64,000 nt of DNA from an uncultured Clostridium sp. (GTDB taxonomy: Bacteria; Bacillota; Clostridia; TANB77; CAG-508): assembly GCA_930980855.1 (NCBI GenBank), contig CAKNIZ010000001.1, positions 87,198 through 151,197 on the forward strand, in the 5' to 3' direction. Positions 4,404 to 33,629 of the stretch are shown piece by piece. How positions within the stretch are numbered: position 1 is the stretch's first letter; every line of letters starts with the position of its first letter. The notes under the pieces were generated by a model that was given only the letters and a program-made list of their open reading frames with translations, ran no database searches and had not been told where the DNA came from. Made by a program: the position numbers and the translations under genes.

Positions 4404-4958
4404 TTATACCATATAATTTTCCAAAATCATCTTAAAAGCTATAAATATTAAAATTATTCCACCAGTTATTTCAGCTTTTTGTTTATATCTTTCTCCAAAT
4501 ACATTACCTAATTTTACACCTATTAAAGATAAAATAAAAGTTATTATTCCAATGCATATTACAGCTATTGTAATATCCATTTTTAGAAAAGCAAAACTAA
4601 CACCAACCGCTAATGCATCTATACTTGTTGCTATTGCTAGAACAAACATTGTTTTAAAACTAATATCATCATTTTCTTTTTCATCATTTTTGAATGATTG
4701 TATTATCATATTGATTCCTATCACTGACAATAAAATGAAAGCTATCCAATAATTTAAATTTATAAGTTCACTACTTAAATTTTTTGCTAATAGAAATCCT
4801 ACCATTGGCATTAATGCTTGAAATATTCCAAAGTATAATGCTATTATAAGTGCTTTTTTGCAATTTATCTTTTGTATCGATAGACCTTTACATATAGACA
4901 CTGCAAAAGCATCCATTCCCAGCCCTATACTTATTAAAAATATTTCAGTTATACTCAT
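4404..4958 (-). CDS. mntP: manganese efflux pump MntP family
   Basis: The N-terminal GMDAFAVS motif and a duplicated 3-TM architecture match MntP. Confidence 0.8.
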   Translation of the reverse strand: MSITEIFLISIGLGMDAFAVSICKGLSIQKINCKKALIIALYFGIFQALMPMVGFLLAKNLSSELINLNYWIAFILLSVIGINMIIQSFKNDEKENDDISFKTMFVLAIATSIDALAVGVSFAFLKMDITIAVICIGIITFILSLIGVKLGNVFGERYKQKAEITGGIILIFIAFKMILENYMV

Positions 4959-6716: not shown

Positions 6717-6791
6717 TGGCAGGGGTAGAAGGATTTGAACCCTCACGCACGGTTTTGGAGACCGGAATGCTACCATTAACATCATACCCCT
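6717..6791 (-). tRNA. trnW: tRNA-Trp (anticodon CCA)
   Basis: The reverse complement gives an AGGGGTA/TACCCCT acceptor stem, a GGTTCAAATCC T-arm, a CTCCAAA anticodon loop and an encoded CCA end. Confidence 0.85.
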
Positions 6792-7546: not shown

Positions 7547-8191
7547 CTACATATCATCTTCATTCTCATTATTTTGATTATCCGTTTCGTTTTCCTTTTT
7601 CTTTTCTTCTTTTTTTTCATCTTTACTCTTAGTATATTTATAATCACTGTCATCTTCATTTACTTTTATTTCTTCGTTTTCTTCTTCCTCTGAGTAACAA
7701 TGATTATCGCAATGATTACATTCTCCCGTGCAGTAATCATCCCAATCTAGTTCTATAATATTATGGCAATTTGGACATTCTATTTCATCTTTTAAATTAG
7801 TTTCTTTTCCTATAACAAATTCATGATTACAATATGGACATACAATCTCAAATTCATAATCCATTTCATTATCATGCATTTGATCTCCATGACAATATTC
7901 TTCATCACAATCATCACAATTGCAATCTTCGCATTCGCAATCGTCATCTTCATCATCATTATCGATATATAAATCTTCTTCTATTCTTTTTAATGATTTT
8001 TGAATATGCTTTACTTTCTTTTCTAACTTAATTTGTTTTTCACTGTTTTCTACTAATTTTTCAATAGTATCCATAAACATTACTGTCATTTCTGAAAATT
8101 TGCTTTTTACAAATTCTAATTCTTGAGGATTTTTTATTTTTACCTCTAATTCAGACAATATCTTGTTATAATTTTTATTTAACTCTGCCAT
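7547..8191 (-). CDS. acidic Cys-rich zinc-ribbon protein (hypothetical)
   Basis: A coiled-coil N-terminus is followed by multiple CxxC pairs (CPYCNHEF...CPNCHNII, CECEDCNCDDCDEEYCH) and a D/E-rich tail. Confidence 0.5.
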   Translation of the reverse strand: MAELNKNYNKILSELEVKIKNPQELEFVKSKFSEMTVMFMDTIEKLVENSEKQIKLEKKVKHIQKSLKRIEEDLYIDNDDEDDDCECEDCNCDDCDEEYCHGDQMHDNEMDYEFEIVCPYCNHEFVIGKETNLKDEIECPNCHNIIELDWDDYCTGECNHCDNHCYSEEEENEEIKVNEDDSDYKYTKSKDEKKEEKKKENETDNQNNENEDDM

Positions 8192-8206
8192 AATACTTCC
8201 TTTCTA

Positions 8207-8773
8207 CTAAATTCTTTCCATATATTCACCTGTTCTAGTATCCACTCTAACAACATCCCCTATATTAACGAACATTGGAACTGTTAATTTGTATCCATTT
8301 TCTAATGTTGCAGGTTTTCCAGATGTAGTTGCAGTATTTCCTGCAAATCCTGGTTCTGTGTATGTAACTTCTAATTCAACAAATATTGGTGGTTCTATAG
8401 AAAATACATTTCCTTTATATGAAAGTATTTTTACATTCATATTTTCTTTTAAGAATTTTAAGCTATCTCCTAATTGATTGCTATTAAGTGGAATTTGTTC
8501 ATATGTTTCATTATCCATGAAATAATATAAACCTCCATCTTCGTATAAATATTGCATTTCCTTTTTTTCAATTTCTGCTGCTGGGAATTTTTCTGAAGGA
8601 TTGAATGTTTTTTCAATTACACTTCCTGTTATAACGTTTCTAATTTTTGTTCTAACAAAAGCTGAACCTTTTCCTGGTTTTACATGTTGAAATTCAACTA
8701 CCCTATATACATTTCCATCCATTTCAAAAGTTGTTCCGTTTCTAAAATCACCTGCTGTATATACTGCTGCCAT
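8207..8773 (-). CDS. efp: elongation factor P
   Basis: [36 protein letters not shown] matches the EF-P KOW domain. Confidence 0.9.
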
Positions 8774-8912
8774 TATTATTTCCTCCTTATTTAAAAATTA
8801 TTCATAAACACATATATCTATTTTACACCATTAGAGCTCAAAAATCAAGCATTTTACATAATTAAAAAATAAATATATGGTTATACTTCATAGCAAAATA
8901 ATGTATAACCAA

Positions 8913-9012
8913 TTGTATATTCCAAGATTTTTTGTTTCTTACTGTCGCTGCTAAAATTCTCCGAATTTTACAGCTCCAAACTGCGCGAAACTGCAAAATC
9001 TTGAATATACAA
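8913..9012. repeat. MITE-like palindromic element, family B copy 1
   Basis: 19-bp terminal inverted repeats TTGTATATTC(C/A)AAGATTTT flank a conserved CTCCAAACTGCGCGAAACTGCAAAATCTTG core. A second copy lies at 30222-30306. Confidence 0.7.
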
Positions 9013-9073
9013 AAAATAATTAATGCGCTATGAATTTGAACTCATATATTTAATTTATAAAATTAATAAAAAC

Positions 9074-9490
9074 CTATTTTCTATTAATATAATTTTCTAA
9101 TATATATACTGCTGCAATAGTATCTACGACTGACTTTTTCTTTTTATTATTAATATTTAAATAATTCATTGTTTTATGTGCTTCTACTGTTGTAAGTCTT
9201 TCATCAACTGATACTATTTCAATATTATTAAACCTAGATTTAAGCTTATGTATAAAGCTTTCTGTTTCTTCAGTTCTTTTACTAGGTGTTCCATCCATAT
9301 TTAATGGATTTCCTATTACAAATGTATCAATATTATAAGTATTTAAAAGCTCTTCTAATCTTTTTAGTATAATTTTATCATTGCCATTTGAAGTAATTGT
9401 TTCTAGTCCTTGAGCAGTTATTCCTAGTTCGTCAGTTATTGCTATTCCAGTTCTGGCTATTCCATAATCTATTCCTAATTTTCTACTCAT
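9074..9490 (-). CDS. ruvX: Holliday-junction resolvase-like RuvX/YqgF
   Basis: [16 protein letters not shown] matches the N-terminal YqgF motif, and the gene sits directly downstream of ireB. Confidence 0.8.
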
Positions 9491-16691: not shown

Positions 16692-17552
16692 TTATCCCCC
16701 TATTTGTTTATTTGTTTTTTCTAATATCAAATATCTTTTTTCTATTATGTTTTTATAAAATTCTTTCCTAACATTAGACAAGCATTCTATACTATCTATA
16801 AAATTATTTATTTTTTCCATATCTATTTTATCAAATATTCTTTTTATTGCACTATTACATTCTTCATTTTTCATTTCTTTTATAAATGTCATATAATTAA
16901 TTTTCTTACCATTTTCTTTTATGCAAGAATAGCAATTAATTGCTAAATTTTTCAATTCTATTTCCGTTATTCTCTCTAGTTCTTCATCTTCTAGCATTGG
17001 ATTTAAACATGAGCCGCAATCATATATTGGTGAAAATTTAATTTCCTTAGTATTTCTATTTAAAATAAATCCCCAATTTCCATTGTGTCTATCCGTATTT
17101 CCAATCAAACTATCTATAATAAACATATCCCAAAATTTTTCTTTTATTTCTTCTTGATGAATCATCTTGTTTTCATCTAAAACTTCCATAATGTCTTCTA
17201 TATCTGTTTCAATTTTTTTGTCAGGATTTGTACTTAATGCTAAACTTTCAAATTCATATAATATATTTTCATCATCTGTAAAATCTTCACAAGCACATAC
17301 AATTTTTTCTTTTCCGTTATAAAAATATTTTCCAAGCACTGTGTTTTGCGTTTCAAATCCAACTATTTTAAATATATTACTTCCCACATATTCTGAAAAA
17401 GCATTGTTAATATATGAAATGTTTTTATTCTTTTCTCTGACTGGGTCAGGAAATTTTACTAAATATTTTTTGTTATCATATATAAGTGTTTTCTTTTTTT
17501 CAGACCCTTTATAATTATTGAATTCTTCAATTGCGTTTGTAAAATCAATCAT
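16692..17552 (-). CDS. HipA-like (CtkA-family) putative Ser/Thr kinase
   Basis: The IDSLIGNTDRHNGNWGFI catalytic-loop motif matches the HipA C-terminal domain. No HipB partner is adjacent. Confidence 0.55.
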   Translation of the reverse strand: MIDFTNAIEEFNNYKGSEKKKTLIYDNKKYLVKFPDPVREKNKNISYINNAFSEYVGSNIFKIVGFETQNTVLGKYFYNGKEKIVCACEDFTDDENILYEFESLALSTNPDKKIETDIEDIMEVLDENKMIHQEEIKEKFWDMFIIDSLIGNTDRHNGNWGFILNRNTKEIKFSPIYDCGSCLNPMLEDEELERITEIELKNLAINCYSCIKENGKKINYMTFIKEMKNEECNSAIKRIFDKIDMEKINNFIDSIECLSNVRKEFYKNIIEKRYLILEKTNKQIGG

Positions 17553-17696
17553 CTTTTTCCCTTCTTTCTATTATACAAATATAATAGCATAAATAATTTC
17601 ACATATCTAGTTAATTTATAATTTTATTTTAAAATTTTGCATAAATCTTCATGTAATGCACATAATAGCAATATAATGAAAAAATTAGGAGGAAAA

Positions 17697-18245
17697 ATGA
17701 AAGCGACAGGAGTAGTAAGAAGAATAGATGATTTAGGAAGAATCGTTATTCCTAAAGAAATCAGAAAAACTTTGAGAATAAAAGAAGGCGACCCATTGGA
17801 GATTTTCACAGAAAAAGATGGTGATATAATTTTAAAGAAATATTCTCCAATTGGTGAACTTTCTAATTTTGCAACAGAGTATGTTGAAAGTTTGAATAAA
17901 ATCACTGGACATATTAGCATAATAACAGACAGAGATACAGTTATAGCAGTAGCAGGAACTCCAAAAAAAGATATATTGGAACAAAAAATAAGTAGTAGCC
18001 TTGAAAAAGTATTTGAAAATAGGCAAAAATTTATTGGTGACGGCAATAATTCTATTTTAATTACTGAAAAAGGCAATAGAGAAAAAGAAATGAATCCTCA
18101 AGTTATTGCTCCGATTATCTCTGATGGGGATGTTATAGGAAGTGTTGCTTTAATAAGCAAAGATTCCTCTTCAAAAATGAGCAAGACAGAAGAAGAAATT
18201 GTGTCTGTTGCAGCAGCTTTTTTAGGAAGCCAAATGGAAATATAA
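17697..18245 (+). CDS. spoVT: stage V sporulation protein T (AbrB-type DNA-binding plus GAF domain)
   Basis: MKATGVVRRIDDLGRIVIPKEIR is the AbrB/SpoVT swapped-hairpin motif. An AGGAGG RBS precedes the ATG at 17697. Confidence 0.85.
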   Translation: MKATGVVRRIDDLGRIVIPKEIRKTLRIKEGDPLEIFTEKDGDIILKKYSPIGELSNFATEYVESLNKITGHISIITDRDTVIAVAGTPKKDILEQKISSSLEKVFENRQKFIGDGNNSILITEKGNREKEMNPQVIAPIISDGDVIGSVALISKDSSSKMSKTEEEIVSVAAAFLGSQMEI

Positions 18246-18260
18246 TTTTTTCAAATTTTT

Positions 18261-18290
18261 AAGAGCCTCTTTATTGAGGCTCTTTTATTT
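18261..18290. terminator. bidirectional terminator between spoVT and mazF
   Basis: AAGAGCCTC-TTTATT-GAGGCTCTT is a perfect 9-bp stem followed by a T-run. Confidence 0.65.
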
Positions 18291-18294
18291 TCTA

Positions 18295-18627
18295 TTATTT
18301 AATTTGTTCTAACTCAGAATAAATAATATCTATAACATTTTGCAATATGTCATTTGGTAAATTTTCTATTATTTGATATGTCCTACTATTTAAATCAAGT
18401 GCTTTTATATGTTCACATAGTATCACTCCAGTTGTTTTCGTTCTATTATCTAGCGGAACATGCAAAGGAAATTTATTATCTGTATTTGTGATTGGACATA
18501 CAATAGATAATCTGGTTTTTCTGTTAAATATATTATTACTTATAACGACTGCTGGTCTATAGCCTGCTTGCTCATGCCCTGATTGTGGATTAAAATTAAT
18601 TTTTATAATTTGTCCTTGTTCTACCAT
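18295..18627 (-). CDS. mazF: type II toxin MazF/PemK endoribonuclease
   Basis: GQIIKINFNPQSGHEQAGYRPAVVIS matches the PemK/MazF fold signature. Confidence 0.85.
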   Translation of the reverse strand: MVEQGQIIKINFNPQSGHEQAGYRPAVVISNNIFNRKTRLSIVCPITNTDNKFPLHVPLDNRTKTTGVILCEHIKALDLNSRTYQIIENLPNDILQNVIDIIYSELEQIK

Positions 18628-18893
18628 ATTTCCTCTCCTTTAGGCTCTCCCCAATCAATTTCTATTGGTTCATAATCATCTTTATAATCTTGAAATAATT
18701 CTTTTATGTTTTTTCTCTTATGTTGATTTGCTTTTTCTAAAATTAATTTTCCTTTATCAATAACAATTATAATTTGTTCATTTTCTGACCATTCAACACT
18801 GTCTAAAAGTGCTTTGGGTATTCTTATTCCTTGACTATTTCCCCATTTTTGAATAGTTGTTGTCATTTTACCATCTCCTTTTTGTATATACAT
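18621..18893 (-). CDS. mazE: antitoxin MazE/PemI (AbrB-fold)
   Basis: WGNSQGIRIPKALL is a swapped-hairpin motif, and the ORF overlaps the mazF start. Confidence 0.75.
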   Translation of the reverse strand: MYIQKGDGKMTTTIQKWGNSQGIRIPKALLDSVEWSENEQIIIVIDKGKLILEKANQHKRKNIKELFQDYKDDYEPIEIDWGEPKGEEIW

Positions 18894-20841: not shown

Positions 20842-23466
20842 CTATATGTTATCTTTTCTAATTGTTTCTATTATATTTTGTTTATTAATTTTATTTAATG
20901 AATATTTCATTATAGCTCCAATTAATGCAAACACTACAATTATTGCTACAATAGTTGGCATAACTGGGAACTTATATGACATTTCTATTCCTTGGCTAAA
21001 AGCCATATATAGTAAATATGAACCTAATACTCCAAGTGGTACTCCTATTAAAATTGCTTTTGTTCCATAGAATATGCTTTCCAACCTAATCATTTTGTTA
21101 AACTCTTTTTTCGTCATTCCTATTGATTTTAGATTTGCAAATTCTTTACTTCTCAAATTCATGTTACTTGTTATTGTATTGAATATATTAGTTATTCCTA
21201 TTAATGAAATTACTATTATAAATCCGTATAAGAATATTGCAATTATTAATATTAATGAGTTTTGAGATTTGACCTCATTTTCTATATTATATAAATCCAC
21301 ATGAGGATAATTCTTTTTTATTTCTTGTTCCAATTTTCCTGCATCTTTTGCATCAACATACATCATACTTATAAGCCAATCATATTGTTCGATAAATTCA
21401 TCGCTAACAATAATTATTCCATTTGTAGCTGATGTCATTTCTTGACCCATAGGAGCTTTATCTGTCAAAGTTGCAACTTCTAAGGTTACCGGTGTTTCCT
21501 CTTCTCCTTTCAATATTTTCGCTTCAAACTTATCTCCTTTTTTGAAATTATAAATATGTCCTACTTCTTTTTTGTACTCTCCATTATCTCCGTAATAAAC
21601 ATATTTCTCATAATTATCCATCCATATTACTTTATCTTTCGCATAATCATAACTTAGTCCTAAATCATCAATATATCTTCTGTACTCATCTTCTCCCAAT
21701 GCATAGATTGTTGTATATGCAATATTAGCATCTTCTAATGAATCGTTTCCATATCCTTCGACATATTCTTTTCCATCTTCTGTATATTTCAAATTTCTCT
21801 TATCTAATTTTAAATTTAGCACTCTTGAAATTGAATATTCTTCTACTCCTTCCATTTCTGCTATTTCTTGATAGAGTTTATATGTTTCTTCTTCAGTCTC
21901 AGTCTGTTCCCCCCTGCTTATACTAATATTGTATTTTACTTCTTTATAAGTAATATTCGATACTTCGAAACCATATTGCACTAATGAAGTAACAGATATA
22001 AATATCATTATACTTACAATCAAGGATACAACTGTTGTTCTATATTTTTTCTTATTTCTTTTCAAATTTTTATATGCTACAGTTCCACCTATTCCAAATA
22101 TTTTCTTAATTATTTTAGGTGATTTTATTTTTTTACTTTTTATTTTTATATCAGTATTACTTCTTATAGCATCAATAGGTGATACTTTTGAAGCTTTTCT
22201 CGCTGATGATATGCAAGAAAAGTAAATAGTAATTCCTGCTAAAACTACCGAGAAAATTATAGCAAGTACTGGTATAGAAAATATAAATGTAAAATCTTCA
22301 GATATATTTCTCATTAAAGTATTTAATACTATTGATAATATAACATTTACTATAATTCCAAGTAAAATTCCAAGTGGTATTGCTATAATTCCTAATATAA
22401 ATCCTTCAAATAGTACATTCTTTTTTATTTGCTTTTTAGTCGCTCCTATTGACGAAAGCATTCCATATTGTCTTGTTCTTTCTGTGATAGATATTGCAAA
22501 ACTATTTCTTATAACAAAAACACTAGATATTATTATTATTACAAGTACGATAATTCCTACTAGATATAGCATTCTCATATATGCATTATTAAGTCCTACG
22601 CCTTCGAAATTTAATAATGATGTATTAAACAATAAACCATATTTACTTCCTAATGTTTCTGGTTCTTCTCCATATACAAGCTCATCTAATCCCATATATA
22701 GGTCTTCTTTTTGCTTTTCTACATTCATTCCTAATACACTGCATGTAACTTCTTTATAATTTCTTAATGCATCTTTTTTATATTTTACAAATATATTTGC
22801 ATCTTCTGCTATATTTGTTGTATCTAAAAATGTTATAACTGTATAACCAGGTGCTGTAAATGGTTCTAAATCATAATTAAGTCTATTCATGATTCCTACT
22901 ATTGTATATTCTTTGCTGTACATTTTTTCTAATTCTTCATCTTCTGTATATATATCTTTTTGATTTAACTCTTTACCCTCTAGAGTTCTTTTTGATACAT
23001 CCAAATTAATTTTTTGCCCTACTTTTAAATTGACTTCTCCATTATAAATTATACTTGAACTAATCACTATCTCATCACTATTTTGAGGAAGTCTTCCTTC
23101 TGTTATAGTAAATGGCATTTTTGTAAGTCCAGCTGAATCATAACCAACTATATTTACATATGGCTTATCTGGATTAGTACTTCCATTTAAAGCAGCATAT
23201 CCTAAATCAGATGATAAAAAATAATCCTCTACATTTCTATTTTCCTCAATATATGAAAGTTCTTCGAGTGGTACTTCTTTAAATTCTGCATGAAAGTCTC
23301 CATATGTGTCTATAGAATATTGCTTAAGTGTACTCTGTCCACTTGTTACCATCCCTGCAACAACTGTTATTAAAGCAGTCGATAAAATTATACCTATTAT
23401 TGTTACCAATGTTCTTTTTTTATTTAATTTTAAACTTTTGATTGTTAGTTTATTAAGGATTTTCAT
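20842..23466 (-). CDS. ABC transporter permease, FtsX-like (two FtsX domains, MacB/VraG-type)
   Basis: The 874-aa protein has an N-terminal TM, large extracytoplasmic domains and two 4-TM FtsX modules. Confidence 0.8.
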   Translation of the reverse strand: MKILNKLTIKSLKLNKKRTLVTIIGIILSTALITVVAGMVTSGQSTLKQYSIDTYGDFHAEFKEVPLEELSYIEENRNVEDYFLSSDLGYAALNGSTNPDKPYVNIVGYDSAGLTKMPFTITEGRLPQNSDEIVISSSIIYNGEVNLKVGQKINLDVSKRTLEGKELNQKDIYTEDEELEKMYSKEYTIVGIMNRLNYDLEPFTAPGYTVITFLDTTNIAEDANIFVKYKKDALRNYKEVTCSVLGMNVEKQKEDLYMGLDELVYGEEPETLGSKYGLLFNTSLLNFEGVGLNNAYMRMLYLVGIIVLVIIIISSVFVIRNSFAISITERTRQYGMLSSIGATKKQIKKNVLFEGFILGIIAIPLGILLGIIVNVILSIVLNTLMRNISEDFTFIFSIPVLAIIFSVVLAGITIYFSCISSARKASKVSPIDAIRSNTDIKIKSKKIKSPKIIKKIFGIGGTVAYKNLKRNKKKYRTTVVSLIVSIMIFISVTSLVQYGFEVSNITYKEVKYNISISRGEQTETEEETYKLYQEIAEMEGVEEYSISRVLNLKLDKRNLKYTEDGKEYVEGYGNDSLEDANIAYTTIYALGEDEYRRYIDDLGLSYDYAKDKVIWMDNYEKYVYYGDNGEYKKEVGHIYNFKKGDKFEAKILKGEEETPVTLEVATLTDKAPMGQEMTSATNGIIIVSDEFIEQYDWLISMMYVDAKDAGKLEQEIKKNYPHVDLYNIENEVKSQNSLILIIAIFLYGFIIVISLIGITNIFNTITSNMNLRSKEFANLKSIGMTKKEFNKMIRLESIFYGTKAILIGVPLGVLGSYLLYMAFSQGIEMSYKFPVMPTIVAIIVVFALIGAIMKYSLNKINKQNIIETIRKDNI

Positions 23467-23468
23467 TT

Positions 23469-24158
23469 CTACACCTCCTTAATAATCTTTCCATCTTCTA
23501 TTGTAAGTACTCTATCCGCTTCGTTTGCAATTTCTTTATTATGAGTAATCATTATTATTGTTTGTTTATATTTTTTATTCGTCATTTTTAATAACTCAAC
23601 AATTTCATCACTTGACTTTGAATCCAAATTTCCTGTTGGCTCATCTGCCAATATTATTGCTGGATTATTAATTAATGCTCTACCAATTGATACTCTTTGT
23701 TGTTGTCCTCCTGATAATTCATTTGGCAAGTGATTTTTTCTATTGTCTAATTTTAAAGTTTTTAATAAATCGTTTAATCTATCTTCATCTACTTTGTTTC
23801 CATCTAAATCACAAGGAAGAGTAATATTTTCTTCAACATTTAATATTGGTATTAAGTTATAGAATTGATATATTATTCCTACTTGTCTTCTTCTAAATAT
23901 TGCTAGATTATCATCATTTAAGGTATATATATCTTTTCCATCAACATACACTTTTCCTGATGTAGGTCTATCAACTCCTCCTAGTAAATGTAATAATGTA
24001 GATTTTCCGCTTCCTGAACTACCTACTATTGCTAAGAATTCTCCTTTTTGAACAGAAAAACTTACATTATCAACAGCTATTACTTCACTTTCTCCTTTTC
24101 CGTATTTTTTAGTCAAATTTTCAACTCTTAATATTTCCATAAATAACATTCCTTTCAT
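23469..24158 (-). CDS. ABC transporter ATP-binding protein
   Basis: Walker [18 protein letters not shown] and Walker B ILADEPTG motifs are present. Confidence 0.9.
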   Translation of the reverse strand: MKGMLFMEILRVENLTKKYGKGESEVIAVDNVSFSVQKGEFLAIVGSSGSGKSTLLHLLGGVDRPTSGKVYVDGKDIYTLNDDNLAIFRRRQVGIIYQFYNLIPILNVEENITLPCDLDGNKVDEDRLNDLLKTLKLDNRKNHLPNELSGGQQQRVSIGRALINNPAIILADEPTGNLDSKSSDEIVELLKMTNKKYKQTIIMITHNKEIANEADRVLTIEDGKIIKEV

Positions 24159-24207
24159 TTAATTTAACTTTATTATACAGAGTTAAAGTGACTTTTAAAT
24201 GACTAAT

Positions 24208-25422
24208 TTATTTAATCCATCTAATTTTAAATGATGTCCCTTCACCTAATTTAGAATAACAATTTATTGTTGCACCTTGATTTTCTAATATAGATTTTGA
24301 AAGTGCTAGTCCTATTCCGAAACTATTTTCCTGAGAGTTTTTTCCCTTATAAAATCTTTCAAAGATATGCTTTATATCTTCTTCATCTATTCCTTCTCCT
24401 TCATCTCTTATTTCTAATTCTGTATACATATTCGTATTTTTTGCATTTATATAAATATTTTTCTCTTCTCCTGTATGCTCAATACAATTTTTTAAAATAT
24501 TAGTTATTGCCTCTAAAGTCCACTTATAATCCCCTTGTACACAGCAATCTTTTTCTATATTCTTTAATATATTTTGTTTTTTAATTTCTATTGGTATTTC
24601 TAAAGTTTCGATTGCATCATTTATTAAGTTTTCTAACCTTATATTCTGATTGTTAAATTTTACTGCTTCTGCATCTAATTTTGATAATTTCAAAAGTGAA
24701 ATTGTTAAAAAACTTATTTGTTCAATTTGCCTACTTATTTCAAATAAAAATTTTTGTTTTGTTAGTTCATCCATCTCACTGTTTTCTTTTATTTCATCCA
24801 ACATTATTGTAATTGATGTTAATGGGGTTTTTATTTGATGAGATATATCTGACAAACTTATTGCTAAATTTTTCTTATCTTTTTCTGAATTTTCAGCCTG
24901 CTCTCTAAGCATTAAAGTTATTTTATATAGTTCATTTCTTAAATTTGTAAGTTCATCTTCTGCATTTTCTTTTATTTTTAGCTCATAATTTTTATCATTA
25001 ATATCTCTAATATATTTTGTTATTTTATTAATTTCTTTTTTCTCTTTATATTTATATATAATATTTACCAAAATAATTAACAATAGCAGCATTAAAATTA
25101 TCAATGAATTTAATATTAAGCTTTGATTATATACACTTTCCATATTTAATATTGCAGATTCACTACTATCTATTCCATATCTTTCAAGAAGATTTTTTCC
25201 TTCATTTATGCTTTCTTGATTTTTTTCTCCATTTAAAATTACTGCAATTTTCTCATCTGATATATTTGGATATTTTTCTTTTATATTACCAATTATTTCG
25301 AATATTACTGTATTATATTCTTCTCTATATCTATCATACTCATACTTTGTAGCTACTATCATTGCTAAAATTCCAATTATACTAATTATACAAATAATAA
25401 TTACACTACTCTTTTTCATCAT
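24208..25422 (-). CDS. sensor histidine kinase
   Basis: Two TMs, a HisKA box (SHQIKTPL) and HATPase_c motifs (G-x-G-L) are present. Confidence 0.85.
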   Translation of the reverse strand: MMKKSSVIIICIISIIGILAMIVATKYEYDRYREEYNTVIFEIIGNIKEKYPNISDEKIAVILNGEKNQESINEGKNLLERYGIDSSESAILNMESVYNQSLILNSLIILMLLLLIILVNIIYKYKEKKEINKITKYIRDINDKNYELKIKENAEDELTNLRNELYKITLMLREQAENSEKDKKNLAISLSDISHQIKTPLTSITIMLDEIKENSEMDELTKQKFLFEISRQIEQISFLTISLLKLSKLDAEAVKFNNQNIRLENLINDAIETLEIPIEIKKQNILKNIEKDCCVQGDYKWTLEAITNILKNCIEHTGEEKNIYINAKNTNMYTELEIRDEGEGIDEEDIKHIFERFYKGKNSQENSFGIGLALSKSILENQGATINCYSKLGEGTSFKIRWIK

Positions 25423-26074
25423 CTACTCTATACCCTATTCCTCTTACTGTTTTTACAATCTTTCCTTCACTATCTCCTATTTTTTCTCTTATACGCTTTA
25501 TATATACTGTTAGAGTGTTATCATTTACAAAATTACCTGCCACATCCCATATTTTATCTAAAAGCATTTCTCTAGTAACCAACTTATTTTTATTAGTAAA
25601 TAGCATTAGTAATATTCTATACTCTAATCCTGTAAGTTCCACAATTTTACCTTGACTTTTGACTTCTCTATTTTCTGTATCAATCGTAATTCCTTTACAC
25701 TCTATTAGATTTTGCACTATCTTGTTATATCTTCTTAAAGCAACTTTTATCCTAGATATTAGTTCCCTTACTTTAAAAGGTTTTACGACATAATCTTCTG
25801 CCCCTAAATCTAGTCCTTTTACTACATTAGTTTCTTCGTCCCTTGCTGTTAAAAATATTACTGGAACATCATTTTTTTGTTTTATTTCTTTGAATAAGTC
25901 AAAGCCATTTCCATCAGGAAGTGTTATATCCAACAGCACTAAATCATATCCCTCTTCTTTTTTTGCATCTATTATATTCTTTGCAATTTTTACATTATAT
26001 TTTTCTTGCTCTAGTGCATATTTTAATCCCATTATTATAGTTTCACTATCTTCAACCAATAAAATTGTAAACAT
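25406..26074 (-). CDS. OmpR-family response regulator
   Basis: A receiver domain (LLVEDSE..LLDITLPDG) and a winged-helix C-terminus (GIGYRV) are present. Confidence 0.9.
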   Translation of the reverse strand: MFTILLVEDSETIIMGLKYALEQEKYNVKIAKNIIDAKKEEGYDLVLLDITLPDGNGFDLFKEIKQKNDVPVIFLTARDEETNVVKGLDLGAEDYVVKPFKVRELISRIKVALRRYNKIVQNLIECKGITIDTENREVKSQGKIVELTGLEYRILLMLFTNKNKLVTREMLLDKIWDVAGNFVNDNTLTVYIKRIREKIGDSEGKIVKTVRGIGYRVDDEKE

Positions 26075-26163
26075 ATTAAATTCCTTTCTTACGTATTATA
26101 TTATATCAGGAATAGACTTTAGTTTCAATAATTGCCTATTAAATAGCAATCTCAAGTGTCCAA

Positions 26164-26192
26164 TTTGCAAATATTTGTTTTCTGTGTTATAA
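26164..26192 (+). promoter_or_regulatory. candidate sigma-A promoter (TTGCAA-17-TATAAT) for the GC-rich orphan gene
   Basis: A consensus-like -35 (26164-26169) and -10 (26187-26192) with a 17-nt spacer lie about 30 nt upstream of the GGAGG RBS. Confidence 0.45.
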
Positions 26193-26224
26193 TTATAAGT
26201 ACTACATTTTTGGAGGTGTGCATA

Positions 26225-26668
26225 ATGCTCATTACGCAAAGTGGCCTTGAATCGGCCGAATCCAGCAAAGAACTTTCCATTGATGATGTCTTCACCACGC
26301 TTATTGCAGCGTTGTATGTCACCAGAATTACTGGTCCTGCAACAGAAACTGATAAGCTGTTGATGATTAGCTTTTATGACCAAGTCAAGCGGCTTGGCGA
26401 AAATCCTGAGGCATTCTATGGAAAAAGGTCTTTTCCTGATTTGGTTATTAAGGACTACCTGAAAGATCACAAACATATCCCTATTGATGATAAAATCAGC
26501 TCTATGGATATAATGTTTGTATCTGAAAGAGTCCGGAACCACAAGAACGTCAAAATGACGCAAGTTACTTTGACATTTGAGAACTCATCTTCGATTGAAA
26601 TCGTAGATTTTTCTCCGACGTTCAGCCGTTTCATGAGACACTACGTGTTTGAGGATAAGAATCCTTAA
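26225..26668 (+). CDS. hypothetical protein encoded in a GC-rich (about 45% GC) foreign islet
   Basis: A GGAGG RBS 8 nt upstream of the ATG, a clean 147-codon frame and a GC-rich terminator support the call. Composition is very different from the roughly 27% GC flanks. The antisense ORF 26096-26563 is judged spurious. Confidence 0.5.
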   Translation: MLITQSGLESAESSKELSIDDVFTTLIAALYVTRITGPATETDKLLMISFYDQVKRLGENPEAFYGKRSFPDLVIKDYLKDHKHIPIDDKISSMDIMFVSERVRNHKNVKMTQVTLTFENSSSIEIVDFSPTFSRFMRHYVFEDKNP

Positions 26669-26686
26669 GCATGTTAGCACAAAAAA

Positions 26687-26718
26687 CCCCAGGCTCGTTA
26701 TCGGGCCAGGGGTTTCTT
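26687..26718 (+). terminator. GC-rich rho-independent terminator
   Basis: CCCCAGGCTCG-TTAT-CGGGCCAGGGG stem-loop followed by TTTCTT. Confidence 0.5.
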
Positions 26719-26721
26719 AAT

Positions 26722-28023
26722 TTATGCAGTTTCTTTCGCTTCTGTTTTTTCTCTTTTTACTTTTTTAGTTTTTTCTTTTTTATTTTCATCTATAATAACT
26801 TCTGGTTTCTCTAAACCTTCTACAGTTGCTTTAGTTATTATACATTTAGCAATCTTTGGATTAGATGGTATTTCATACATTACATCTCTCATAGTTTCTT
26901 CCATGATAGAACGTAATCCTCTTGCTCCGGTTTTTCTTTCTATTGCTTTATCTACAATTGCTTCCAATGCATCTTCTTTAAATTCTAATTCAACTCCATC
27001 TATTTCTAATAACTTTTTATATTGTTTTAATAATGCATTTTTTGGTTTTGTCATTATTTCAATTAATGCATTTCTATCTAATTCTCTTAAAGTTGCTATT
27101 ATTGGAAGTCTTCCTACAAATTCAGGAATTAAACCAAATTTTAATAAATCTTGTGGAAGCATTTGTCCATAGATTTGGTATTTATCTATTTCTTTTTCAC
27201 TTTGAATATTTGCACCAAATCCTATTTCTTTTCTGCCTATTCTTTCTCCAATAATTTTATCTAAACCTTCAAAAGCTCCTCCACAAATAAACAATATGTT
27301 AGATGTATTTATTTGTAAGAATTCCTGATGAGGATGTTTTCTTCCTCCTTGTGGTGGAACTGATGCAACTGTTCCTTCTATTATTTTTAAAAGTGCTTGT
27401 TGAACACCTTCACCACTTACGTCTCTAGTAATTGATGGGTTTTCAGATTTTCTAGAAATTTTATCTATTTCATCTATATATACTATTCCCTTTTCTGCTT
27501 TTGCAATATCATAATCTGCAGCTTGAATAAGCTTTAATAGTATATTTTCAACATCTTCCCCAACATATCCTGCTTCAGTTAATGTTGTTGCATCTGCTAT
27601 AGCAAATGGTACTTTTAATATTCTAGCAAGTGTTTGTGCTAAAAATGTTTTTCCACATCCTGTTGGTCCTAATAAAAGAACATTACTTTTTTGAATTTCA
27701 ACATCATCAGATGTTTCATCTTCATTATTAATTCTTTTATAATGATTATATACAGCAACAGATAATGTTTTTTTAGCTTCTTCTTGACCAATTACATATT
27801 CGTCTAATATTCCTCTTATTTCTTCTGGAGTAGGTAATTTTTCTTCTTCATTAAGAGTATATGTTTCTTCATCTTCTTCATACTCATCAGTTTCTAATAT
27901 GTTATTACAAACTTTTATACATTCATCACAAATATATACTCCTGGTCCAGCTACAATTCTGTGAACACTCTCTTGTGGTTTTCCACAGAATGAACATCTA
28001 ACACTTTGATTTTTCTTTGTCAT
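26722..28023 (-). CDS. clpX: ATP-dependent Clp protease ATP-binding subunit ClpX
   Basis: A CSFCGK...CDEC zinc finger, Walker A GPTGCGKT and the GARGLR motif are present. Confidence 0.95.
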
Positions 28024-28038
28024 ATTATCTACTCTCCT

Positions 28039-28653
28039 TTATTTTCTTTTGTCCATAATTCCATCAATTAAACCATATTTTAAAGCTTCTTCAGCTGTCA
28101 TGTAGTGGTCTCTTTCTGTATCTCTTTCAATAACTTCAAGAGGTTGACCTGTTCTTTCACTTAATAGTTTGTTCAATTTTTCTCTTGTTTTGATCATTTG
28201 GTCTGCATGGATTTTTATTTCTGTTGCTTGACCAGATAATCCTCCGCCTTGACCACCAATTAGAGGCTGATGTATTAATATTTCTGCATTTGGAGTTGCA
28301 AATCTTTTTCCTTTATCTCCTGATGCTAAAAGCACTGCTCCCATACTTGCAGCCATTCCTATACATATTGTTGTTACTGGACATTTGATATAGTTCATTG
28401 TATCTACTATACCTAATCCGTCTGTAACAGAACCTCCTGGTGAATTTATATATAATGAAATTTCTTTATCTGGATCTTCTGACTCTAAGAATAGCATTTG
28501 TGCTATTACTAAACTTGCTGATGTTTGATTAACATCTTCACTTAAAAATATTATTCTATCTTTTAGTAATCTTGAGAAAATATCATATGATCTTTCTCCT
28601 CTAGCTGATTGCTCGATTACATAAGGTACTAAACTATCATTAAATTCTTTCAT
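28039..28653 (-). CDS. clpP: ATP-dependent Clp protease proteolytic subunit ClpP
   Basis: The GMAASMGA active-site Ser region matches ClpP, and the gene is in the tig-clpP-clpX order. Confidence 0.95.
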
Positions 28654-30344: not shown

Positions 30345-30917
30345 TTATCCTATTTTATTAGAAAATTTTAATTTTTTTTCATCAAATATTATTGATTTCG
30401 GTATTTTTTTTGACACTATTTTCACATAATTTAATATTAATTTTCTGCAATTATACCTTTTTAGCACACCTATTTGAGAATTTAATCTCTCTAAAATATT
30501 TTCCTGATTATTCTTATTAACTTGTTTAGCCTTAGTTATAACTCTAATAATTGTAGTTTTTTTCGGCTTTTGGTATCCATAAGGATATGAGACTTTTCCT
30601 AGAAAAGGAACTCCATGGCAACATCCTTCAACCAGTTCATTTTCTAGTATTTCCTCTATTTCGTTCATATAAAAGTGCTGAACAACTCTGTCACCAAATT
30701 GTGCAGCATATATTTCTCTTAAAGCTGGGTCTGTAACAACATAACAGTTAGATTGTTTTGGAATATATTTTCTTTGATTTAAGTTGTCCAATATTTCCAT
30801 TAAATTTTTGCATAATTCATCATTTACAAAACTGTATGTTCCTATTTTCCTTTTTTTATTCTTTAAGCAAGAAATATATGCTGCATATAATTCATCAAAT
30901 GTTAAATTATCTTCCAT
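30345..30917 (-). CDS. DGR reverse transcriptase, internally truncated (about 190 aa, lacks catalytic core)
   Basis: The N-terminus (FDELYAAYISCLKNKK..IYAAQFGDRVVQH) matches DGR RT motifs 1-2, and the C-terminus (LNSQIGVLKRYNCRKL) resembles the RT thumb. No YxDD or motifs 3-7 are present. The six-frame ORF 30345-30989 extends upstream through the TR. Confidence 0.65.
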   Translation of the reverse strand: MEDNLTFDELYAAYISCLKNKKRKIGTYSFVNDELCKNLMEILDNLNQRKYIPKQSNCYVVTDPALREIYAAQFGDRVVQHFYMNEIEEILENELVEGCCHGVPFLGKVSYPYGYQKPKKTTIIRVITKAKQVNKNNQENILERLNSQIGVLKRYNCRKLILNYVKIVSKKIPKSIIFDEKKLKFSNKIG

Positions 30918-30955
30918 AGCCAACCACTTCCTTAAAAATTTTAATATAATGAAAC

Positions 30956-31080
30956 TCGCCGCCAGACGCACGTAGTTAGTGTTGTTCACATTGTTGTTGT
31001 TAATGTTGCCGTTGTTAAAGTTCGCGTTATAAGCGTTGTTAGTATTGTTCTGCGAAGACGACCAGCACCACGAACTAAGA
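30956..31080 (-). repeat. DGR template repeat (TR)
   Basis: The 125-bp segment is homologous to 31337-31461. The coding (minus) strand is rich in AAC codons (NNTNNAYNANFNNGNINNNNVNNTNY). Confidence 0.85.
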
Positions 31081-31308
31081 TACTCAACAACCAGCCTGCC
31101 TATTTCTTTTATATATTTCTTGATTTATCTTTTTTGTGGCTTCGTCTATTTTTGTTTGAGTCCAATGATTTTTCTTTACTTTTTCTGTTTGCTCCATTTT
31201 TTTATTCTTTCTATACAATTTTTTAAATACTTGGTCAAACCAAAATCTTCTTACGAAGCTTTTTTCGGTTTGACCTTTCGCCCGTTATTTACATAACGTG
31301 CGATTTTT

Positions 31309-31336
31309 CTTTCTAATTTTTTACAAAATTAGAAAG
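31309..31336 (-). promoter_or_regulatory. hairpin immediately 3' of VR (DGR homing stem-loop candidate)
   Basis: CTTTCTAATTTT-TTAC-AAAATTAGAAAG is a perfect 12-bp stem overlapping the target stop codon. It is absent at the equivalent position next to the TR. Confidence 0.55.
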
Positions 31337-32402
31337 TCGCCGCCAGACGCACGTAGCGAGTGACGTTCACACCGTTGGTGAAAATGTTGCCGTAGGAAAA
31401 GTTCGCGATAAAAGCGGTGTCAGTATAGTCCTGCGAAGACGACCAGCACCACGAACTAAGACCGTAGTCGTCATAATTGCTTGACGTAATATTTAGTGGT
31501 TCTAGTACCTCTCCTCCAAATGCTGCCCATTCTGATCTTGATGGAACGAACCATCCTTTTTCTATTTTGCTTTTTCCATCTTCTTCTTTTGTCTGGATTA
31601 TTCCCCACATATCATTTGCATTTTGATTTCCGTATTCTGGTACATTCCAACTTGCTATCATTCTATTTGTATTTTTTCTTCCTGTTGGTTCCTCTCCAGC
31701 TTTTGCAAAGTCATTTTCTGTATCATCTACATTATACTGACTGTCTAAGTCTCCTTCTTTATACCAATAATGTGTGTTAGCATCAAAATCATCCAATGCC
31801 ATTACATAAAATCTTTCATTTCCTTGGCTTCCTTTTACTGGCGCTACTACTTTTCCAGTTCCAAAGTCATCTGTTACTTCCTCTTCTTTTACATAATATT
31901 CTTTAAATCTTCTCTCTACTGGAATTGTATAATCTCCCCAGTTATCTCCCCAATTTCCATCTCCAGTATTTCCTCTAGCTAGGTCCGCAAATATTATTCC
32001 ATCTACTGTTCCATTATCATCTATATCTGCATAATAGCATGTTCCACTTTCTGTTTCTGGAAATTTCTCTATTTCTACCCTTGTTCCTGTTATTTTTACC
32101 CCATTTACATACGCTGTTTTTCCTAATGCAATATCTTCTGGAGTTGCATTAGCATCAGATGTATCTAGTACTTCTAATGTTCCTGTTATTCCACCTATTG
32201 TTATTCCCTTTTTTATATTATTCGCTATTAAACTTGAATTTGTATTTTCTCCTGCTAAATAGTTTTCTACTTTTGCTTGTTGTTTTACTACTACATTTCT
32301 TATTAGTATACTTCCTATTATTATTACGATTAAAACTATTACTGTAATTAATATTATTAATCTCTTTTTCTTATCATCTTGCATTTTAATTTGTTTTTTC
32401 AT
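31329..32402 (-). CDS. DGR target protein: membrane-anchored, C-terminal C-type-lectin-like/DUF1566-like variable domain
   Basis: An N-terminal TM is present. The C-terminal GWFVPSRSEWAAFGG...SWCWSSSQ is followed by the VR (last 41 aa, ...RYVRLAATF). Confidence 0.8.
   Translation of the reverse strand: MKKQIKMQDDKKKRLIILITVIVLIVIIIGSILIRNVVVKQQAKVENYLAGENTNSSLIANNIKKGITIGGITGTLEVLDTSDANATPEDIALGKTAYVNGVKITGTRVEIEKFPETESGTCYYADIDDNGTVDGIIFADLARGNTGDGNWGDNWGDYTIPVERRFKEYYVKEEEVTDDFGTGKVVAPVKGSQGNERFYVMALDDFDANTHYWYKEGDLDSQYNVDDTENDFAKAGEEPTGRKNTNRMIASWNVPEYGNQNANDMWGIIQTKEEDGKSKIEKGWFVPSRSEWAAFGGEVLEPLNITSSNYDDYGLSSWCWSSSQDYTDTAFIANFSYGNIFTNGVNVTRYVRLAATF
31337..31461 (-). repeat. DGR variable repeat (VR)
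   Basis: Across the 79 variable positions, the TR and VR differ at 20 sites, and every one is a TR adenine on the coding strand. The flanking 46 bp are identical, and a GC-rich GTCTGGCGGCGA IMH-like box lies at the 3' end. Confidence 0.85.
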
Positions 32403-32531
32403 TTTTTTCCTCCATTGTAATTTTATTTGTTTTCCATAACAAAAAAGCCATATACTTTAAACAAATTTTAGGTTTGCTTAAAATACATAGCTTTTTTTCT
32501 ATGTTTGTTTTTTATTTTATTAAATCTTACG

Positions 32532-32550
32532 ATATATATATATATATATA
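32532..32550. repeat. (AT)9 dinucleotide microsatellite
   Basis: GATATATATATATATATATAC lies in the leader region upstream of the DGR target gene. Confidence 0.8.
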
Positions 32551-32615
32551 CAGCCCCAAGGCTTTCAGCAATTTTCATATTCGTTTTTGCCTTTCTTTTT
32601 TTAATATTCAACACT

Positions 32616-32644
32616 ATTTTACATTTTTAAAAGAAGTTTGTCAA
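32616..32644 (-). promoter_or_regulatory. candidate promoter for DGR target (TTGACA-17-TAAAAT on minus strand)
   Basis: On the minus strand, -35 TTGACA (32644..32639) and -10 TAAAAT (32621..32616) are separated by a 17-nt spacer. Confidence 0.4.
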
Positions 32645-32681
32645 CTATTTTTTTATAAATATAAAATTTGCGTATAGTTTG

Positions 32682-33629
32682 TTATAAGCCTTTTATCTCT
32701 TCTTCACTCAATCCTGTTATTTCCTCTATATCTTCCTCTTTCATTCCTTTTTCTTTCATTTTTTTTGCAATTTGCATTTGTTTTGATTTTTCTCCTTCTG
32801 CAATTCCAACCTTTTTGCCCTTTATAATTCCTTCTTCTATTCCAGCTTCTCTTGCTCCAGCCATTCCACTATCATAATTGTATTTTGCCATTAATCTTGC
32901 TTCATATAGTTCTCTTTCTTTTGGGTCCATACTCATTTCATCTACTAATATTCCTGCTTTTTTTACTTCTTCATTCTTATCCTCTGCCATTTTGATTTTT
33001 TCCTCCCTTCCACTTATTAGCCATAGCCACTGTTCTAGCTTTCCTTCTACTCCTGGATTCTTTTTTATAAATTTCGGCATTTCTATAAAGTGCATTTCTA
33101 ATTCTTCTGTTGCATTTTCATCTTCTACTTTGTATCCCATATCTACATATTCATTTGGTTTTATTTTTTCAAATTTCATATGTGCTACATGATGGTAACT
33201 TCCTCTTTTATATAATATGTAGTTTAGTATTATTATAACTATTGATTTTTTTAATGCTCTATAATCTTCTGTTTTTTGGATTTGCGTTGCGATGTTTTTG
33301 CACATATATACTGTTGACCTTTGTTTCATATTGTATTCATCACTTACTTGCATTTCAATATCTACTACTGTATTCCCATTGATTTCTGCTTTTATATCCA
33401 GTATACTTGCTTTTTCTTCTATTAGCTCCTTTGGTATTTCGCTATTCCTTACCTCTAAATTTGTTATTTTTACTTCTAGTATTGCTTCTAATAGGTCTTT
33501 TAAAATTCCTGTTGTTCCTTCTTTAGTAAATGTACGTTTGAATATGTAATCATTTAATAAAGGTAATTTCTCTGGCTTTGCCATTTTTCCTCCTTCTATT
33601 CTAACAAATTGTTTACGTTTTTTCAACAA
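32682..33629 (-). CDS. Rpn/YhgA-family recombination-promoting nuclease (paralog of 1635-2555)
   Basis: LLNDYIFKRTF at the N-terminus and C-terminal EAGIEEGIIKGKKVGIAEGEKS repeats match the family. The final ...ITGLSEEEIKGL motif is shared with the paralog. Confidence 0.75.
   Translation of the reverse strand: MLKKRKQFVRIEGGKMAKPEKLPLLNDYIFKRTFTKEGTTGILKDLLEAILEVKITNLEVRNSEIPKELIEEKASILDIKAEINGNTVVDIEMQVSDEYNMKQRSTVYMCKNIATQIQKTEDYRALKKSIVIIILNYILYKRGSYHHVAHMKFEKIKPNEYVDMGYKVEDENATEELEMHFIEMPKFIKKNPGVEGKLEQWLWLISGREEKIKMAEDKNEEVKKAGILVDEMSMDPKERELYEARLMAKYNYDSGMAGAREAGIEEGIIKGKKVGIAEGEKSKQMQIAKKMKEKGMKEEDIEEITGLSEEEIKGL

Follow-up and report, generated by a model that had tools for sequence, protein, structure and literature searches.

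We analysed a 64,000-nucleotide stretch of DNA from an uncultured Clostridium sp. (assembly GCA_930980855.1, contig CAKNIZ010000001.1, positions 87,198 to 151,197 of the forward strand; hereafter the window) and focus here on a GC-rich islet at window positions 26156-26718, located between the gene for an OmpR-family response regulator (RR) and clpX. The results reveal that the islet consists of a single monocistronic gene encoding a 147-amino acid soluble alpha+beta protein, hereafter the orphan, and that the orphan represents a new small protein family confined to one clade of uncultured AT-rich (~27-30% GC) Clostridia. Further, its GC excess lies almost wholly at codon position 3 and is, in other words, a property of synonymous sites. 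The explanation that accounts best for these results, to which as a whole we give a probability of about 0.72, is that the orphan, perhaps with the adjoining block of two-component system and ATP-binding cassette (ABC) transporter genes, arose or arrived before the separation of three lineages of this clade (A, B, and C) and has been passed down vertically from then on, and that its high GC content at third codon positions (GC3) is actively maintained and not the leftover of a donor genome. A preliminary description of the islet had presented it as a self-contained expression cassette that was recently acquired; the former was supported, with promoter, ribosome-binding site, and terminator all conserved across lineages, but the latter was not.

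A monocistronic gene of atypical composition

The GC content of the islet is 39.8%, whereas the window averages 27.4% (sd 3.1% for 563-bp segments), and only 0.11% of the 563-bp segments reach this value. Thus the compositional anomaly seen in the preliminary description is real, but the figure of 45% GC given there is too high: the open reading frame (ORF) of the orphan has a GC content of 40.1%, and only a 200-bp peak at 26200-26399 reaches 44%. Codon positions 1 and 2 have host-like GC contents (0.43 and 0.32, respectively); GC3 is 0.446, which is ~9 sd away from the other ORFs of at least 100 amino acids in the window (0.153 ± 0.031, maximum 0.233, n = 59). Third-position A drops to 0.20 compared with 0.51 and is replaced by C- and G-ending codons, and the commonest codons of the host are avoided (TTA in 0 of 11 Leu, ATA in 1 of 12 Ile, and CCA in 0 of 6 Pro codons). 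The shift in GC content ends at the borders of the coding sequence, the intergenic 150 bp upstream and the genes on either side being AT-rich. The only other span of the window that is as GC-rich as the islet is 31320-31893.

The features of the locus, in window coordinates, are as follows.

26156-26718, plus strand: the orphan unit (islet), between the RR gene and clpX
26156-26170, plus strand: -35 element TTGCAA (26165-26170) with the conserved upstream stretch GTGTCCAATTTGC, from the promoter scan
26185-26193, plus strand: extended -10 element TGtTATAAT (TG at 26185-26186, TATAAT at 26188-26193), from the promoter scan
26212-26216, plus strand: ribosome-binding site GGAGG, 8 nt 5' of the ATG at 26225
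26225-26668, plus strand: coding sequence of the orphan from the ORF list, 147 amino acids, predicted soluble alpha+beta protein (GC 40%, GC3 0.45)
26681-26718, both strands: GC-rich hairpin, a bidirectional intrinsic terminator common to the orphan (plus) and clpX (minus)
26100-26128, minus strand: divergent promoter of the RR operon, TTGAAA-17 nt-TATAAT with TG (promoter scan, 11/12 consensus matches)
25406-26074, minus strand: OmpR-family RR gene, left neighbour of the orphan and first gene of its operon
20842-26074, minus strand: operon of RR, histidine kinase (HK), ABC ATPase, and MacB/FtsX permease genes, led by the RR gene
26722-28023, minus strand: clpX, right neighbour, convergent with the orphan and last gene of tig-clpP-clpX

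As the preliminary description had it, the 147-codon gene is preceded by a GGAGG ribosome-binding site and a near-consensus TTGCAA-17 nt-TATAAT promoter, which has 10 of 12 consensus matches in addition to the extended -10 element. However, such a promoter is not rare here: five promoter-like sites were found in the local 1 kb compared with 4.3 expected, and the promoter of the divergent RR operon scores above that of the orphan. A longer ORF with a GTG start at 26156 was rejected as the gene because its GTG precedes the -10 element of the promoter. The GC-rich terminator is likewise present (-25.1 kcal/mol, z = -4.0 against dinucleotide shuffles) but is not private to the orphan. On the minus strand, where UUUUUU follows, the hairpin is just as stable (-24.2 kcal/mol), and it ends 3 nt from the stop codon of clpX; therefore, we regard it as a bidirectional terminator shared with clpX. 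Transcription would thus begin at ~26200 from a strong sigma-A-type promoter and end at this common hairpin. The orphan is one of the few plus-strand genes in the window, and no paralogue of it was found there.

We next consider the evidence that the ORF is a real protein gene. Lineage A is the species of the window, represented by conspecific metagenomic contigs (L001-L006) with 96-99% nucleotide identity to it; lineage B comprises L087-L096, L100-L102, L104, and L105, and lineage C comprises L097-L099. The orphan alleles of the conspecific contigs encode proteins that are 88-99% identical, and every length difference among them (1 to 18 codons) preserves the frame. In lineage A, the ratio of nonsynonymous to synonymous substitution rates (dN/dS) takes values of 0.12-0.19, and in lineage B it is 0.15. 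AlphaFold2, given an alignment of 30 family sequences, returned a confident model (predicted local distance difference test score (pLDDT) 92.3, predicted template-modelling (TM) score 0.87), compared with a pLDDT of 41 when only near-identical sequences were supplied. Together, the low dN/dS, the in-frame length changes, and the confident model indicate a real protein gene. The predicted fold runs from a beta-hairpin through four helices and a long three-stranded antiparallel sheet to a C-terminal helix; no transmembrane segment is predicted, and the isoelectric point (pI) ranges from 5.4 to 9.4 across lineages. Invariant or near-invariant residues are Y31, G37, L46, Y51, K80, S93, K107, E125, S130, S134, R135, Y140, and F142. 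At the protein level, the orphan evolves ~10 times faster than ClpX and is still under purifying selection.

A 155-codon ORF on the opposite strand (26096-26563) was rejected as an antisense gene, as it is not conserved even within the species. In two samples, we noted an allele with an in-frame 54-nt deletion (L001 10001-10390, protein P0005) corresponding to window positions 26291-26344, which takes out residues 23-40, most of predicted helix 1, and leaves the rest of the gene identical. This allele may mean that the orphan is dispensable or decaying in some strains.

Database searches agreed with the preliminary description in assigning the protein to no family. A phmmer search against 1.84 billion representative proteins yielded three real matches, all from the clade; the distant full-length relatives are P0006 (148 amino acids, 30% identity) and P0008 (134 amino acids, 26% identity). 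A profile search widened the family to ~31 clusters, most of 134-148 amino acids with two aberrant entries of 129 and 191, none of which carries a Pfam domain or a name given by its source. The protein had no match above threshold in Pfam, NCBIfam, PHROGs, or PADLOC, and neither did any of the 30 family members in Pfam. A sequence profile search of PDB returned only chance matches to antibodies (E > 0.7), and Foldseek detected no structural analogue in PDB (best E 0.064, TM 0.23) or BFVD. Overall, the orphan defines a new small protein family with a confident predicted fold and no sequence or structural relative in the libraries searched.

Distribution and inheritance of the orphan

In a public assembly collection, 218 index blocks list the identical protein, and the 23 contigs carrying it that we read, which collapse to six distinct places, all have it at the RR-clpX locus. 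The homologues of lineages B and C, with 19-35% identity, occupy the same position between RR gene and clpX, divergent from the former and convergent with the latter, and a search of the metagenome with a reduced family profile added only three further loci, all in the same context. In all cases examined, the orphan is flanked by the RR-HK-ABC operon on one side and the 3' end of clpX on the other; it was therefore already present in the common ancestor of the clade, with vertical inheritance thereafter. Between lineages, identity is 86-89% for ClpX, 90-96% for ClpP, 81-88% for Tig, 73-76% for RR, 57-61% for HK, and 19-35% for the orphan; within lineage B, the identity matrices of the orphan and of these five neighbours rank the members alike in relatedness. 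Conservation at the same position in relatives, which the preliminary description had named in advance as the finding that would speak against a recent acquisition, is thus what we found in all three lineages.

The signals of the unit were conserved as well. The TG-n-TATAAT element is invariant in seven of seven aligned lineages. Lineages A and B both keep TTGC with the preceding TGTC-N-AATT stretch, and the start of the 5' untranslated region is conserved across lineages, although the remaining intergenic region has diverged. As ribosome-binding site, lineages A and B have GGAGGTG, where lineage C has GAGGAG, and a GC-rich hairpin directly follows the stop codon of the orphan in every lineage. 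Both hexamers of the divergent RR promoter are also conserved across lineages.

No relative of the islet was detected among the PLSDB plasmids and INPHARED phages by blastn or among the IMG/VR contigs by profile scan. Between the RR gene and clpX there is no mobility gene, and the only flanking repeats are weak, AT-rich chance ones inside the neighbouring coding regions; the only tRNA gene in the window is at 6720-6791. Empty sites were absent from the contigs read (the 23 with the identical protein, the variants, and the three lineages), in which no search was aimed at empty-site alleles.

Beyond the clade, the nearest GTDB representatives among the matches listed are metagenome-assembled genomes (MAGs) of uncultured Clostridium or Clostridia whose ClpX is 76-79% identical. 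These relatives have no positional counterpart of the orphan, with unrelated genes downstream of clpX, which counts against our explanation; in view of them, the origin may be ancient transfer, de novo birth, or divergence beyond recognition. One of them (L009, CALXPV010000023.1, an uncultured Clostridia MAG with 76% ClpX identity) carries a GC-rich islet of its own directly downstream of clpX (7650-9150; 42-49% GC compared with 21-30% in the flanks), containing a 391-amino acid ORF without assignment in the same direction as clpX. This ORF was rejected as a relative of the 147-amino acid family (hhalign probability 1.9%, not significant), only a short GALYAS motif being common to both.

Within lineage A, a comparison of the window with L005 showed a 3.3-kb block (24260-27560, covering the HK and RR genes, the orphan, and the 3' two-thirds of clpX) that is 4-12% diverged, with its peak on the orphan, whereas the flanking ABC ATPase, clpP, and tig genes are <1% diverged. 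This block looks like a recombination import or a pair of long-lived alternative alleles. An apparent truncation of the RR gene in L002 (53-amino acid gene call; 4631-4730) was rejected, as it results from a scaffold gap of 100 N.

Persistence and possible causes of the high GC3

The GC3 of orphan orthologues is 0.33-0.55 in every lineage, compared with 0.07-0.19 in their own neighbours. Between lineages, the proportion of synonymous differences in the orphan is 0.76-0.88, i.e. saturated, with dN ~0.8, compared with dS 0.5-2 and dN 0.03-0.34 in the neighbours. Because third positions have been overwritten many times, the GC3 of the orphan would reflect the current local equilibrium and not the composition of a donor. 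Polarised third-position changes in lineage B (L095 and L101, with L087 as outgroup) comprise 16 from A/T to G/C (W>S) and 13 from G/C to A/T (S>W), so the two kinds are about equally many; per W site, W>S changes have a rate of 0.28 in the orphan compared with 0.05-0.08 in five neighbours, and the implied equilibrium GC3 is ~0.59 compared with 0.14-0.31, figures that are supportive but not decisive because parsimony with a saturated, distant outgroup is biased to W>S in AT-rich genomes. A rough amelioration estimate, with an equilibrium GC3 of ~0.13 towards which the deviation decays at ~4 times the neutral rate, predicts a GC3 of at most ~0.3 at a neighbour dS of 0.5-1, even from a donor at 0.9. 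We infer that the high GC3 is actively maintained. Codon usage is thus as atypical, on calculation, as the preliminary description supposed, yet the anomaly is old and appears to be maintained, and it is no mark of recent transfer.

Selection for a strongly folded and probably more stable mRNA is the cause that we prefer, tentatively and at rather less than even odds. The predicted transcript (26200-26720) folds at -159.7 kcal/mol, compared with -124.3 ± 5.6 kcal/mol for shuffles (z = -6.3). When synonymous codons were permuted such that the protein and the codon counts stayed fixed, the coding sequences of seven lineages gave z values of -3.5, -5.8, -5.1, -5.4, -6.5, -1.4, and -4.2, the natural codon order folding 20-40 kcal/mol better than the permutations, and a dinucleotide-shuffle null gave the same picture. 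For 14 control segments of equal length from clpX, clpP, tig, and the RR and HK genes, the z values ranged from +0.5 to -3.2 (Mann-Whitney p = 0.001, a significance that the rank test overstates because the seven orphan sequences are phylogenetically related). We read these results as an mRNA that is generally compact and probably long-lived, and not as a specific RNA motif.

Several results weigh against maintenance by mRNA folding. The mRNAs of the neighbours also have negative z values, with a mean of ~ -1.8, the z of the window copy (-3.5) is barely beyond the lowest value among the controls (-3.2), and no folding excess is seen in lineage C (-1.4). With an unfavourable covariation term of +3.59, RNAalifold gave no covariation support for a structure common to the lineages: compensatory changes of any kind occur in just 10 of 117 pairs, and the most divergent member of lineage B breaks many pairs. 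Further, the dS of the orphan is 2-3 times that of its neighbours, which fits strong constraint on single synonymous sites poorly. As a separate observation, the clpX and clpP coding segments of the window (26722-28653) and of the L087 and L101 orthologues also fold beyond their permutations (z -1.1 to -3.2), and the HK segments show no folding excess (z ~0 to +0.5). In this genome, expression level and mRNA folding may be linked in general.

More speculatively, and in our opinion doubtfully, the transcript could be a dual-purpose molecule that encodes a protein of new fold and whose RNA body is itself under selection to stay tightly folded and rich in GC, in a genome of only 27% GC. The folded RNA might then confer nuclease resistance or a long life, act as a temperature- or stress-dependent gate on translation, or form a barrier between the transcription units of the convergent clpX and the divergent two-component system. 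Should this be true, synonymous-site selection would be holding a GC3 excess of ~30 points over species-level divergence.

Another explanation, compatible with the one based on mRNA structure, is selection for rare codons, in which non-optimal, GC-ending codons throttle or condition translation under strong initiation signals. In its favour, the rare codons GTC, ACG, CGG, and AGC are used in place of the host's commonest ones, the strong promoter and ribosome-binding site are conserved, and the highly expressed neighbours have the lowest GC3 (0.074 in clpX), so that the orphan runs opposite to translational optimisation. However, third-base usage varies by lineage (A 0.18-0.35 and T 0.23-0.38), no fixed set of rare codons being kept, and the effect of codon order on folding, which arises at the same codon counts, is left unexplained; we consider rare-codon selection unlikely as the cause. 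If GC3 is maintained for either mRNA folding or slow translation, the orphan would serve as a natural experiment on how selection acts on synonymous sites when the genome is extremely AT-rich.

Quite unlikely, in our judgement, is a local bias of mutation or repair that raises both the substitution rate and GC3 in the absence of selection, for example through a recombination hotspot with GC-biased gene conversion or through mutagenesis that accompanies transcription of a head-on gene. Such a bias would accord with the elevated dS of the orphan, which was seen in every comparison, with the recombination at the locus that the 3.3-kb block diverged from L005 indicates, and with the plus-strand orientation of the orphan. 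However, the other plus-strand genes of the window have normal GC3 values of 0.13-0.18, for which reason strand or head-on orientation was rejected as the cause. Further, the GC shift stops at the borders of the coding sequence while flanking genes within the same recombination block are AT-rich, and the coding strand lacks the G-over-C or T-over-A skew expected from transcription-associated deamination. Published effects of GC-biased gene conversion in bacteria also amount to a few percent of GC3, not 30 points.

The possibility that the orphan entered the clade at its base from a donor of higher GC content, with its high GC3 an unameliorated relic, is improbable. The codon usage resembles that of a Firmicute with 40-45% GC, and the relatives with 76-79% ClpX identity lack both the orphan and the adjoining two-component system and ABC block downstream of clpX. 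Nevertheless, with proteins down to 19-35% identity and synonymous sites saturated, the ancestral third positions would have been overwritten; the observed GC3 range of 0.33-0.55 lies above the ~0.3 to which decay would lead at most; and W>S changes are about as many as S>W changes. Ancient transfer as the origin of the gene is, by itself, possible and compatible with our best explanation.

The recent transfer proposed in the preliminary description, for example of a small resistance or immunity gene, is highly improbable. A composition and codon usage far from those of the host, a promoter, ribosome-binding site, and terminator of its own, and a protein without an assignable family had all pointed in this direction. 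However, the orphan or its homologue is at the same locus in all contigs read that carry it, in the species and in at least three deeply diverged lineages, and it has diverged in the same order as ClpX, Tig, RR, and HK. Moreover, the blastn search proposed there for a donor or for resistance and immunity matches had none to show in plasmids or phages, IMG/VR held no relative, no repeats or mobility genes border the unit, and only clade members match among the representative proteins.

That the islet is a structured non-coding RNA gene with an incidental ORF, as its own promoter and terminator, its strongly negative folding z values, and the frequent coincidence of GC-rich islands with structured RNAs in AT-rich genomes might suggest, has a very low probability, and a pure non-coding RNA gene is excluded by the coding evidence (conserved ORF, start codon, and ribosome-binding site, dN/dS of 0.12-0.19, in-frame indels, and a confident AlphaFold model), by the absence of any Rfam 15 match at the gathering threshold or at E <= 1, and by the lack of covariation for a shared structure, while the antisense strand folds well too (z -2.9 to -4.1).

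Function, neighbouring genes and comparison with known systems

Our guess at the function is a binding or regulatory protein and not an enzyme, because the orphan evolves fast but under constraint, has a variable pI, and is small; its position also entered into this guess. Adjacency to the divergent two-component system and ABC operon and to the convergent clpX is conserved in the sequences compared, but synteny at such a depth is no proof of a functional link. On present evidence, nothing points to a role in resistance, virulence, immunity, or a mobile element, and models of defence, toxin, or immunity families gave no match (PADLOC 0 families, NCBIfam 0, and Pfam none above the cut-off).

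Elsewhere in the window, the region beyond tig (30345-33629) contains two ORFs without a Pfam match (30345-30989 and 31329-32402) and a gene of the PDDEXK_2 PD-(D/E)XK transposase family (32682-33629). Its gene content varies by lineage (HepT/nucleotidyltransferase, PDDEXK_2, or unannotated ORFs), marking it as a variable spot. Upstream of metG, the region 16692-18627 includes a gene with a HipA_C domain, a SpoVT-like regulator (17637-18245), and a MazE/PemK(MazF) toxin-antitoxin pair (~18295-18870); the SpoVT-like regulator suggests a spore-forming host.

Among known systems, ClpX adaptors such as SspB, compared here solely on account of the location beside clpX, resemble the orphan in being small soluble proteins encoded beside clpX. 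In contrast to them, the orphan has no match by sequence or structure in Pfam, NCBIfam, or PDB, is convergent with clpX and so does not share one operon with it, and lacks a conserved C-terminal tail of the ClpX-binding type, its termini being ..FEDKNP, ..FGDQQ, or ..YMFR depending on the lineage. With GC-rich structured non-coding RNA genes of AT-rich genomes, which are sought by screening GC-rich intergenic regions, the orphan shares the GC-rich island, the promoter and intrinsic terminator of its own, and a transcript that folds beyond shuffles, but it has a conserved ORF under selection and neither a conserved secondary structure, covariation, nor an Rfam family.

The framework of amelioration for acquired genes of atypical composition is said to go back to Lawrence and Ochman (1997). 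Acquired islets and "moron"-type cassettes are like the orphan in their atypical GC content and codon usage and in forming a promoter-gene-terminator unit between core genes. Unlike them, the orphan has no patchy distribution, mobility genes, repeats, donor, or mobile-element relative, its divergence order is congruent with that of the host, and its composition is not decaying to that of the host. Thus it would be a clean counter-example to the equation of atypical GC content and codon usage with recent transfer, the anomaly here being old, syntenic, and apparently maintained.

Finally, we compared the orphan with the orphan genes of gut bacteria. Across 4,644 gut species, orphan genes track the GC content and GC3 of their hosts almost one-to-one (rho 0.96), and phage-derived orphan genes are AT-richer (PMC11293555). 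Our gene is like these in being short, restricted to a narrow clade, under purifying selection, poorer in optimal codons than conserved genes, and without a viral match (PMC11293555). It is atypical among them for its GC3, which is ~30 points above that of the host in every lineage, and, compared with typical gut orphans, it is fixed, at a syntenic position, in several species-level lineages and not a rare "cloud" gene, and its protein is predicted to be well folded and not disordered.

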